From the NCBI RefSeq assembly GCF_003334815.1, contig NZ_QOWO01000085.1: a stretch of 3,120 nucleotides of DNA; one strand, written 5' to 3'. This document shows, in pieces, positions 84-3,096 of this stretch. The DNA is from Escherichia coli (GTDB taxonomy: Bacteria; Pseudomonadota; Gammaproteobacteria; Enterobacterales; Enterobacteriaceae). The position numbers were made by a program, and so were the translations under genes. A model generated the notes under the pieces. It saw only the letters and a program-made list of their open reading frames with translations, did not search any database and was not told the origin of the DNA. Every line of letters begins with the position of its first letter. The stretch's first letter is position 1.

Positions 84-767
84 ATGTCCCGTTTTGTCCT
101 CGGTAACTGCATCGATGTTATGGCCCGTATTCCTGATAACGCCATTGATTTCATCCTCACCGACCCGCCATATCTCGTCGGTTTCCGTGACCGTTCCGGG
201 CGCACCATCGCCGGCGATAAAACCGATGAGTGGCTGCAACCGGCCTGTAATGAAATGTTCCGCGTGCTGAAAAAAGACGCGTTAATGGTGAGCTTCTACG
301 GCTGGAACCGCGTCGATCGCTTTATGGCCGCCTGGAAAAATGCGGGATTCAGCGTTGTTGGTCACCTGGTCTTCACCAAAAACTACACATCGAAGGCCGC
401 ATATGTGGGCTATCGCCACGAATGCGCCTACATCCTGGCAAAAGGCCGTCCACGTCTGCCACAAAACCCGCTGCCGGACGTGCTGGGCTGGAAATATTCG
501 GGCAATCGCCATCACCCGACGGAAAAGCCCGTTACCAGCCTGCAACCGCTGATTGAGAACTTCACACACCCGAACGCAATTGTGCTGGACCCGTTTGCAG
601 GCAGCGGCTCAACCTGCGTCGCCGCCCTCCAGTCCGGACGCCGGTATATCGGTATCGAGCTGCTTGAGCAGTATCACCGTGCCGGGCAGCAACGCCTTGC
701 CGCCGTGCAACGGGCCATGCAGCAGGGGGCCGCGAATGATGACTGGTTTATGCCGGAGGCTGCGTAA
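84..767 (+). CDS. Orphan site-specific DNA N6-adenine methyltransferase, beta class (N6_N4_Mtase-type, YhdJ-like), 227 aa
   Basis: Strong SD and ATG start. Catalytic motif IV DPPY (nt 162-173) lies N-terminal to the SAM-binding motif I FAGSGST (nt 594-614), the circularly permuted order typical of beta-class amino-MTases. The C-terminal segment HPTEKP...VLDPFAGSGST...GRRYIGIE matches the conserved core of YhdJ-like and plasmid orphan adenine methylases as I recall them. No restriction endonuclease partner is present in the window. Confidence 0.9.
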   Translation: MSRFVLGNCIDVMARIPDNAIDFILTDPPYLVGFRDRSGRTIAGDKTDEWLQPACNEMFRVLKKDALMVSFYGWNRVDRFMAAWKNAGFSVVGHLVFTKNYTSKAAYVGYRHECAYILAKGRPRLPQNPLPDVLGWKYSGNRHHPTEKPVTSLQPLIENFTHPNAIVLDPFAGSGSTCVAALQSGRRYIGIELLEQYHRAGQQRLAAVQRAMQQGAANDDWFMPEAA

Positions 768-989
768 ATGAACTATGCAGGACACGAAAAACTGCGCGCC
801 GAAGTGGCGGAGGTGGCCAATGCCATGTGCGACCTGCGTACAACCATGAATGAGATGGAGCAGCGGTACAGCTTTAATGCCGACACCCTGCCGGAACGTC
901 TGGTGCGTCAGACGCTGTTTCGCGCAAACCGCCTCCTGATGGAGGCATATACCGAAATTCTGGAACTGGAAGCGTGCTTTAAAGATTGA
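768..989 (+). CDS. Hypothetical small protein, 73 aa, translationally coupled to the methyltransferase; function unknown
   Basis: Its ATG immediately follows the methylase TAA stop (TAAATG at 765-770), with GGAGG 9 nt upstream. The protein is predicted helical and mildly acidic, with no motif I recognise. It is followed 13 bp later by the next gene, which has its own SD. Confidence 0.65.
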   Translation: MNYAGHEKLRAEVAEVANAMCDLRTTMNEMEQRYSFNADTLPERLVRQTLFRANRLLMEAYTEILELEACFKD

Positions 990-1002
990 GAAGGAGACGA
1001 GA

Positions 1003-1437
1003 ATGTACGGAACATGCGAAACGCTATGCCGGGAGCTGGCAGTAAAGTATCCGGGAGACATGCCGCTGATGCTGGTTATCTGGTCCCCGGAAGAGATTCA
1101 GGCCCTCGCTGACGGAATGGATATTTCCCTGTCCGATCATGAAATCAGAACCGTCCTGGCGCGCCTGGAGGACATCCCGGAAGACCAGCGGACTGAATCC
1201 GGTATTTCTTCCGGCGTGGCGATGGAGATCATCAATAACGTGAGCGAAAACCGCCAGGTGACCGTCCCTGCTGAACTGCTGGCGTCCCTGATTCAGACCG
1301 CTGAACAGGCATTGTGGAAACGTGAATGGGCCGCCCGGGATCATGGCCTCGCCGTCCCGGAATGCGTCACCCGCCGTCAGGCGGTGATTAATCAGGCCCG
1401 CACCCTGCTGAAAAACAACAGACACGAAAACGACTGA
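1003..1437 (+). CDS. Hypothetical acidic protein, 144 aa; function unknown
   Basis: AAGGAG at 991-996 lies 6 nt before ATG 1003. It is the longest ORF in this span; the antisense ORF 1024-1425 has no RBS. By manual count it has about 23 Asp/Glu against about 14 Arg/Lys. No recognisable catalytic motif. Confidence 0.7.
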   Translation: MYGTCETLCRELAVKYPGDMPLMLVIWSPEEIQALADGMDISLSDHEIRTVLARLEDIPEDQRTESGISSGVAMEIINNVSENRQVTVPAELLASLIQTAEQALWKREWAARDHGLAVPECVTRRQAVINQARTLLKNNRHEND

Positions 1438-1482: not shown

Positions 1483-2259
1483 ATGAACGAAAACACAACA
1501 CTGAACGCACTGATTTGTCGTCACGCCCGCAACCTGCTGCTGGCGCAGGGCTGGCCGGAAGAGACGGATGTTGACCAGCGGAACCCGAAGTATCCGGGCT
1601 GGATCAGCATTTATGTTCTGCTGGATGCGCCCCGGCTGGCGATGTTACTCATCAACCGTCACGGCGGCGTACTGCCGCCGCTCCTGGCCTCCGCCATTCA
1701 GAAACTGACCGGAACCGGGGCGGAACTGGTACTGTCTGGCAGTCAGTGGCAGTCGCTGCCGGTACTTCCGGCAGACGGAACACAGGTGTTTTTCCCGTAT
1801 GCCGGAGAATGGCTGACCGAAGACGAAATCAGGGCAGTTCTTGATGCAGTGCGCGATGCGGTACGCAGTGTCAGTTGCCGGGTGGCAGAAGATGCGCAGC
1901 GTATCAGGGCGGCGCTGACCACAACCGGTCAGACGTTGCTGACCCGCCAGACGCGCCGCTTTCGCCTGGTTGTGAAGGAAAGCGATCACCCCTGCTGGCT
2001 CGATGAAGACGACGAAAACCTGCCCGTGGTGCTCGATGCCATCCTGAACCGGGGAGCACGTTTTTCGGCGGTGGAAATGTATCTGGTCAGTGAGTGTGTG
2101 GAGCATATCCTGTCCAGTGGGCTGGCCTGCGATGTGCTGCGTATACCGGATGAACCGCCCCGCCGGTGGTTTGACCGTGGTGTTCTGCGGGAGGTGGTCC
2201 GGGAAGCCCGGGCCGAAATCCGCAGCATGGCGGATGCCCTGGCAAAAATCAGGAGCTGA
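1483..2259 (+). CDS. Hypothetical protein, 258 aa, with an acidic patch (WLDEDDEN); function unknown
   Basis: GGGAGA SD lies 10 nt upstream of ATG 1483. It is a long ORF in the same orientation as the operon, followed immediately by an intrinsic terminator. I see no nuclease, ATPase or HTH motif by eye. The antisense ORFs 1645-2355 and 1986-2312 are low-complexity and lack RBSs. Confidence 0.7.
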
Positions 2260-2263
2260 TGAT

Positions 2264-2287
2264 GGCGGGGAAAATCCCCGCCTTTTT
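2264..2287 (+). terminator. Rho-independent terminator of the methylase-ORF2-ORF3-ORF4 operon
   Basis: GGCGGGG-aaaat-CCCCGCC (7-bp GC-rich stem, 5-nt loop) followed by TTTTT, beginning 5 nt after the ORF4 TGA stop. Confidence 0.75.
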
Positions 2288-2341
2288 CCTGCCGGTCCCG
2301 GACAGAGCACAAAGGACGTCGCCGCCGGCTCCGCTTTACCC

Positions 2342-2370
2342 GGCCATGCGGGCATGGCCTTATGGGTTTT
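2342..2370 (+). terminator. Second hairpin (GGCCATG-cggg-CATGGCC) followed by an interrupted T-tract (TTATGGGTTTT); possible backup terminator or the 3' end of a short transcript
   Basis: Perfect 7-bp inverted repeat seen directly. The downstream T-run is interrupted, so this is weaker than the terminator at 2264-2287. Confidence 0.35.
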
Positions 2371-2657
2371 CAGTTATGTGGCCTCAGCGCCGTGTGCGGG
2401 CTGTGCCGTGCCTCCATCTTAGCCGGGCTGGCGTTGATGCAAGGGTACGCTTCGCCGCTGCGGTCACCCGGTCCCTCCTTCCCGTCTGCCGTGATTTTCC
2501 GGTCGTTCGCCCGCTCAGGTTTCGCGGCCTCACCCTGCAACTCCCGCCAGCCGTGTGCGTCAGGCTGCGGCTTCCCTTGCGCCCCTGCATCCCCGCCTGT
2601 TCGCCCGGCTTTTATGGAGGCACGGCACCGCCCGGTGTCGCGGAATATGTGAACAAC

Positions 2658-2662
2658 GGAGG
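2658..2662 (+). promoter_or_regulatory. Shine-Dalgarno (GGAGG) for klcA
   Basis: GGAGG lies 8 nt upstream of ATG 2671. Confidence 0.6.
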
Positions 2663-2670
2663 AAAACATC

Positions 2671-3096
2671 ATGCAATATGCGAAACCTGTCACTCTGAAC
2701 GTTGAAGAGTGCGACCGTCTCTCCTTTCTACCGTATCTGTTTGGCAACGATTTTCTGTATGCCGAGGCGTATGTGTACGCGCTGGCGCAAAAAATGATGC
2801 CGGAATATCAGGGAGGCTTCTGGCATTTCATCCGCCTGCCGGATGGTGGCGGTTACATGATGCCGGATGGCGACCGTTTTCATCTGGTCAACGGTGAAAA
2901 CTGGTTTGACCGCACTGTGAGTGCTGATGCCGCAGGTATCATCCTGACTTCCCTTGTGATTAACCGCCAGTTGTGGCTGTACCACGACAGCGGGGATGCG
3001 GGACTGACACACCTTTACCGGATGCGCGATGCGCAGTTGTGGAGCCACATCGAATTTCACCCCGAATGCAACGCGATTTACGCGGCACTGGACTGA
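2671..3096 (+). CDS. klcA: Anti-restriction protein, KlcA/ArdB family, 141 aa
   Basis: Good SD and ATG. The protein carries the pattern I associate with KlcA/ArdB anti-restriction proteins: [11 protein letters not shown] ... EAYVYA ... [19 protein letters not shown] ... [10 protein letters not shown] ... [12 protein letters not shown] at the C-terminus. Its size (141 aa) also fits. This is recall of the family, not a database hit. Confidence 0.88.

Follow-up and report, generated by a model that had tools for sequence, protein, structure and literature searches.

The GC-rich spacer upstream of klcA in an IncI-type plasmid leading region is very probably a class 2 single-stranded DNA promoter

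The window, by which we mean the whole 3,120-nucleotide stretch of Escherichia coli DNA analyzed here (assembly GCF_003334815.1, contig NZ_QOWO01000085.1), carries five genes on its plus strand (Table 1). Its methylase/DUF1380/258-aa operon is closed by an intrinsic terminator, with an 8-bp stem (7 G-C pairs), a 3-nt loop, and a TTTTT tail, and an earlier sequence-only reading that had placed a long noncoding spacer between this terminator and the klcA start is borne out across positions 2260-2670. The KlcA protein has the same accession as the copy on plasmid pESBL-EA11. In blastn comparisons, the spacer was 100% identical to the IncI-gamma/K plasmid p95 (NZ_CP023356.1), in which the block represented by the window lies in the leading region and is followed by ssb, psiB, psiA, and ardA. 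This leading-region synteny is common to p95, pESBL-EA11, and plasmid F, and in these plasmids klcA, ssb, psiB, and ardA are oriented toward oriT/nikA or traM. Because the leading genes all face oriT/nikA, the minus strand of the window is both the transferred strand (T strand) and the template strand. Judged from its sequence, the window comes from the leading region of an IncI/IncF-type plasmid, and the host plasmid is of the IncI-gamma/K type.

Table 1. Genes and predicted elements of the window
Feature	Position	Strand	Basis or remark
DNA methylase	84-767	+	First of five window genes
73-aa ORF	768-989	+	Window gene
DUF1380 gene	1003-1437	+	Window gene
258-aa ORF	1483-2259	+	Window gene
Intrinsic terminator of the upstream methylase/DUF1380/258-aa operon	2264-2287	+	Stem 2264-2282, then T-run
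Conserved flanking part of the repeated unit; on the T strand, a 3' tail past the base of the hairpin	2312-2396	-	Homology with the ardA paralogue from 2312
Predicted non-template arm of hairpin promoter	2397-2445	-	Fold and family conservation
Apical domain with the inner stems and loops; T strand rich in purines	2446-2581	-	Family alignment
Predicted template arm	2582-2634	-	Fold; 20 versus 15 nt between the same paired anchors in 60/68
Predicted klcA 5' UTR, 49-nt leader	2622-2670	+	Shine-Dalgarno GGAGG 2658-2662
klcA/ardB anti-restriction gene, probably driven by the element	2671-3096	+	ATG at 2671; protein WP_001198928.1

The composition of the spacer sets it apart from its surroundings, as had been remarked from the sequence alone: it is 65.8% G+C (2260-2670), compared with 57.9% in the remaining window, and its plus strand is 57.7% pyrimidine, compared with 48.1%, with values of 63% in 2397-2634 and 67% in 2446-2581. 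A consensus scan of both strands from 2200 to 2760 found no duplex sigma70 site, in line with the earlier failure to recognize a convincing promoter. The opinion that the spacer holds no credible ORF also stands, since the ORFs of 96, 110, 125, and 148 aa that cross it had no match in Pfam-A or NCBIfam. Several GenBank entries nevertheless place a "DUF1472 domain-containing protein" here; in CP041748.1, a 190-aa CDS so labeled occupies the equivalent of window positions 2129-2700 (L013, 167-739); as neither Pfam-A nor NCBIfam supports any such ORF, this annotation was rejected and is probably a spurious gene call.

Several smaller motifs had been singled out in the sequence-only reading. The perfect hairpin at 2342-2359 is present (8 bp with a 2-nt loop); it is of marginal significance, since 5.4% of shuffles contain one like it, and only the E. 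coli-type subfamily, not the family as a whole, retains it. The 10-mer GCCGTGTGCG does recur at 2389 and 2550, and GTTCGCCCG at 2505 and 2599, yet neither repeat exceeds chance: 12% of dinucleotide shuffles contain an exact 10-mer repeat, and 7% contain at least three repeated 9-mers. Neither direct repeat is conserved, both being disrupted in orthologues (F or pESBL) or in the ardA paralogues. The short repeats and the small hairpin do not define the element, and the long inverted repeat described below, with its −35 and −10, had been overlooked. Rfam covariance models searched at permissive E-value thresholds returned no family at its gathering threshold. The sole match, to AS-pc01 (the antisense RNA of plasmid pHK01), reached 26.3 bits, where the gathering score is 79 (E = 0.099), on the minus strand of 2260-2359; it is built on the bidirectional terminator and the small hairpin at 2342-2359, and we take it as chance.

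The main feature of the spacer is an imperfect inverted repeat, in which 2397-2428 is matched with 2603-2634 (32 nt, 88%) and which extends through 2430-2445 with 2582-2597. Its ungapped score of 22 compares with a maximum of 14 among 500 shuffles. When both strands were folded as single-stranded DNA, the minus-strand core gave one long hairpin whose centroid is well defined (−75.6 kcal/mol, z = −5.0); the plus-strand core was about 10 kcal/mol weaker, and its centroid was poor (−65.9 kcal/mol, z = −3.8). The 3' arm of the minus-strand hairpin reads CCCTTGCAT, 15 nt, TAAGAT. Here, TTGCAT (the complement of 2442-2437) is the predicted −35 and TAAGAT (the complement of 2421-2416) the predicted −10, separated by a 15-nt spacer and with A(−11) the complement of T2420. 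The template arm carries an asymmetric 5-nt loop, TGTTC (2598-2602 on the plus strand), and its bases facing the −10 are AAA on the T strand (2611-2613). Since the paired 5' arm runs 5'-ward into the klcA complement, a polymerase bound to the hairpin would transcribe toward klcA, and transcription may start 7 nt downstream of the −10, where the template T faces A2622. Our −35 assignment may differ from that of Wen et al., given that a 15-nt spacer is shorter than the canonical 17 ± 1.

Close relatives of this spacer have been described in two plasmids. The region upstream of klcA in pESBL-EA11 is 99.3% identical over 415 nt, and within 2288-2670 the only difference is at 2599-2600 (GT in the window, TA in pESBL). 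Both p95 and pESBL have a paralogue immediately before ardA, at 93-95% identity (95.2% over 354 nt for the pESBL-EA11 copy), and the spacer between yffB and yfgB of plasmid F is 94.7% identical. According to Wen et al. (NAR 2025, PMC12672017), who profiled pESBL transcripts in fresh transconjugants and report six induced operons, the hairpins before klcA and ardA are "class 2" single-stranded DNA promoters responsible for zygotic induction, with start sites mapped by 5' RACE that match the hairpin promoters; induction occurs only early after transfer and lasts longer when duplex conversion is delayed, and homologues in F are noted. In a 2026 preprint (bioRxiv 10.64898/2026.01.09.698686), the F copy is called ssp2; expression of yfgB, an ArdB homologue, is reported to depend on it, and deleting ssp2 is reported to reduce transfer to recipients that carry restriction systems. 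The preprint further reports that the ssp2 stem stalls complementary-strand synthesis, that UvrD resolves the stall, and that expression of the downstream leading genes is thereby prolonged. The ssp2 primers of the preprint flank the F yffB-yfgB spacer, mapping inside the F 258-aa gene and pointing into the orthologous spacer; therefore, ssp2 is the orthologue of the window locus. From the near-identity to the pESBL element and the 94.7% identity to F ssp2, together with the fold, the covariation, the promoter elements, and the gene context described here, we conclude with high confidence that the spacer is a class 2 promoter (ssp2 in plasmid F) that switches klcA on in the single-stranded state. 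The element itself is already known, as the klcA-upstream copy in pESBL and the F copy have both been published. The first of the options offered in the sequence-only reading, that the spacer is a single-stranded DNA promoter or an ssi-like hairpin such as plasmid leading regions carry, is thus upheld by near-identity to published single-stranded DNA promoters, and its other options, a structured 5' UTR or noncoding RNA and a protein-bound duplex region, found no support.

The element occurs in at least 5000 plasmid records (blastn), mostly from Escherichia, Klebsiella, Salmonella, and Shigella. Family members were collected with the candidate sequences of Samuel et al. (2024) as queries and with a degenerate pattern scan, whose many chance matches in GC-rich genomes (Streptomyces and various MAGs) were removed by an nhmmer profile. 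The filtered set comprised 87 full-length members (86 unique) from Erwinia, Pantoea, Enterobacter, Klebsiella, Kosakonia, Cedecea, Buttiauxella, and Salmonella, and the window was aligned with representatives clustered at ~97% identity (n = 68). Copies of the E. coli type were also seen on contigs assigned to Gram-positive genomes or MAGs, some of them beside klcA-like genes (L039 and L040, Streptomyces morookaense; L078 and L085, Collinsella; L031 and L042, Oscillospiraceae and Oscillibacter MAGs); these most likely reflect contamination or mis-binning of enterobacterial plasmid contigs.

Compensatory changes keep the minus-strand hairpin across the 68 aligned members. In the consensus structure of 31 pairs, 94.8% of cells are paired, compared with 30-42% in slid controls, in which the 3' partners are displaced by 1-3 columns, and 201 cells show double changes, compared with 16-37 in those controls. 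None of 500 shuffles matched the observed pairing and covariation; these shuffle statistics overstate significance, the 68 members being akin, whereas the slid-partner control is unaffected by kinship. The wobbles are asymmetric (79 G.T versus 23 A.C), and therefore selection on the minus strand is indicated.

The promoter elements are conserved along with the fold. The −10 follows the pattern TAnnnT, with T in 67/68 members and A in 68/68 at the first two positions, G or A at the fifth, and T in 68/68 at the last, and the TTG of the −35 is found in 63-68 of the 68. On the non-template arm, the −35 and −10 are 15 nt apart in 66/68, whereas the same interval on the template arm is 20 nt in 60/68, a disparity due to a conserved asymmetric loop. 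The −11 adenine stands opposite a base other than T in 66/68 members. The duplex thus lacks a −10, because this adenine is mismatched in the hairpin and the plus-strand hexamer, here TTTTAT, does not provide it; the mismatched adenine may be the source of single-strand specificity. The members fall into two length classes set by the apical domain, a long one of ~263 nt, which includes the window, and a short one of ~210 nt. Apical helix 7 (CCG with CGG) is kept in 67-68 of the 68.

Two apical motifs, AAGCCGCAG and CGGGTGA (alignment columns 80-86 and 192-198; approximately 2560-2570 and 2463-2470 in the window), are invariant or nearly so in 68/68, well beyond what their three base pairs need. 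The distance from CGGGTGA to the −35 downstream of it is ~30 to 40 nt on the non-template arm, which puts the motif at the usual place of an UP element or activator site. The first gene downstream, scored in 80 family cases, encodes KlcA in 29, a methylase in 21, ArdA in 12, DUF1281 in 7, and other products in 11.

Beyond the hairpin base, the conserved flank holds the small hairpin at 2342-2359 and a boundary box at 2312-2334, which on the plus strand runs AAGGACGTCG..GCTCCGC and on the T strand GCGGAGC..GCGACGTCCTT. The window sequence of the box on the plus strand is AAGGACGTCGCCGCCGGCTCCGC. In the family, the box (GCGGAGC..GCGACNTCCTT) is located past the hairpin on the transferred strand, at a distance of 35-155 nt (median 71); its strict motif was found in 31/80 family flanks, compared with 3/1600 shuffles, and its position coincides with the edge of the unit common to the klcA and ardA copies. 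The published accounts of class 2/ssp2 elements consulted here assign no role to this flank. We put forward, tentatively and with considerable doubt, that these 85 nt form a separate functional module of the single-stranded element; one possibility is that such a module positions the advancing complementary-strand replisome, UvrD, or a primosome just before the roadblock hairpin.

Taken as a class 2 promoter, the spacer would work as follows. During conjugation, the minus strand of the window would enter the recipient as single-stranded DNA, and ~240 nt of it (the complement of 2634-2397) would fold into the long imperfect hairpin, whose 3' arm would present a sigma70-type non-template strand (TTGCAT, 15 nt, TAAGAT) and whose 5' arm would serve as the template. 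RNA polymerase would then start near 2622, exit the hairpin at the base of its stem, and continue on the single strand into klcA. Because transcription would run on the single strand, the anti-restriction protein could be made before the complementary strand. Second-strand synthesis would produce a duplex without a usable −10, and the promoter would in this way shut itself off. In the F orthologue, the stable hairpin is reported also to stall complementary-strand synthesis until UvrD unwinds it, which prolongs the single-stranded phase of the downstream leading genes. By analogy, this roadblock may operate in the IncI-type plasmid of the window, and the longer apical domain of the window's length class, compared with the short relatives, may underlie it. 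The homology, the strand-specific fold, the covariation, the conservation of promoter elements, the lack of a duplex promoter, and the gene context come from the present analysis. Zygotic induction and a start site consistent with the hairpin promoter were established by others on near-identical DNA, as was, for F only, the roadblock.

Four other explanations were weighed against the class 2 promoter. The first holds that the element is mainly an ssi or priming signal, recruiting RNA polymerase or the primosome for primer formation, with klcA expression secondary. Published work shows priming of DNA synthesis by Frpo transcripts in vitro and by class 1 (ssp1) transcripts in vivo, and the architecture is alike; however, the preprint (10.64898/2026.01.09.698686) reports early rifampicin-sensitive conversion at ssp1 loci and a rifampicin-insensitive stall at ssp2, and 69/80 family elements sit directly before anti-restriction or methylase genes. 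We consider this explanation unlikely as the main function. A second explanation, that the conserved structure acts as RNA (a 5' UTR, a riboswitch-like leader, or a small RNA, from the plus or the antisense strand), could draw on Watson-Crick covariation, which is symmetric between strands, and on the weak AS-pc01 match. That match is far below threshold, and a terminator precedes the spacer; moreover, the predicted start and the hairpin-promoter start sites given by Wen et al. would leave nearly the whole hairpin upstream of the transcript, and the wobble asymmetry and folding energies favor minus-strand DNA. The chance that the structure acts as RNA is, in our estimate, very small.

The third explanation is a conventional duplex regulatory region with a weak sigma70 or alternative-sigma promoter and operators for plasmid repressors. 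The klcA genes of IncP plasmids are under repressor control, and the region of the window has conserved motifs beyond pairing, both of which count for this explanation; the promoter scan of 2200-2760 was negative, though, and the duplex −10 would lack its essential A in 66/68 members. The timing of induction, according to Wen et al. restricted to the early period after transfer and extended by delayed duplex conversion, also argues against a duplex promoter, which we hold to be just as improbable as an RNA-level function. Finally, that the spacer encodes a protein, or once did, as its crossing ORFs of 96-148 aa and the "DUF1472" CDS could suggest, can be set aside almost entirely, as no frame matches Pfam or NCBIfam, orthologues differ by 1- and 2-nt indels, and conservation follows base pairing, with compensatory changes, rather than codons.

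As class 2 promoters, such hairpins would supply anti-restriction and methylase proteins within minutes of plasmid entry, before the DNA becomes double-stranded, and the F element would also set the duration of the single-stranded window. Such early expression helps resistance plasmids establish in hosts with restriction systems. For annotation, the spacer should be labeled as a class 2 single-stranded DNA promoter and not as a hypothetical or "DUF1472" CDS, and the family rules (TAnnnT with a mismatched −11 A, the 15/20-nt asymmetric spacer, and long or short apices) provide simple search criteria.

Among known systems, the pESBL class 2 element is like that of the window in its locus, KlcA accession, flanking genes, and T-strand stem-loop with −35 and −10. 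The two-base difference at 2599-2600 falls in the asymmetric loop of the template arm, and pESBL is an IncI1 plasmid, whereas the host plasmid of the window is of the IncI-gamma/K type. The F ssp2 element, likewise predicted to fold into the same hairpin and driving an ArdB/KlcA homologue, differs from the window at ~20 positions, including compensated stem changes between the −35 and −10, and the roadblock with its UvrD dependence is reported (in the preprint) for F only. The class 1 elements, namely Frpo1 and Frpo2 (= ssiD) of F and ssi1-3 of ColIb-P9 (Masai and Arai 1997; Couturier et al. 2023), share the principle of a leading-region T-strand hairpin with a sigma70 promoter that is active only when single-stranded and gives zygotic induction. 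Their reference sequences are visibly unrelated to the window element and A/T-rich around the promoter boxes, and the spacer had no blastn match, even at E = 10, in the 17.5 kb of F that hold both Frpo1 and Frpo2. The window element works like Frpo but is not a sequence member of Frpo/ssi class 1. The candidates Frpo' 4, Frpo* 1, and Frpo* 3 of Samuel et al. (Nature 2024, Supplementary Table 2), which derive from an insect-gut metagenome and are computational predictions only, belong to the sequence family of the window element: the alignment of Frpo' 4 covers the full hairpin, with CCCTTGCAT...GGCTAAGATGGAG included, and Frpo* 1 and Frpo* 3 as queries retrieve members of the window's family.

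A further hairpin was observed outside the window, upstream of the DUF1281/hypothetical/methylase operon whose methylase is the one at 84-767, with copies on the minus strand at L001 (10322-10482), L002 (2663-2823), and L135 (3278-3438). It probably corresponds to the "class 3" element of Wen et al., which their paper (PMC12672017) describes as unlike all others. It matched the class 2 family profile with E-values of 7e-15 to 3e-16, aligning through GCCGTG..AAGCCGCAGCGC..CCGGGTGAGGA..CTTGCAT, 15 nt, TAACGT..GGCACGGC, and its sequence suggests a short and divergent class 2 family member. This apparent homology of class 3 to class 2, together with the family-wide promoter rules and the conserved flank box, may add to the published picture.
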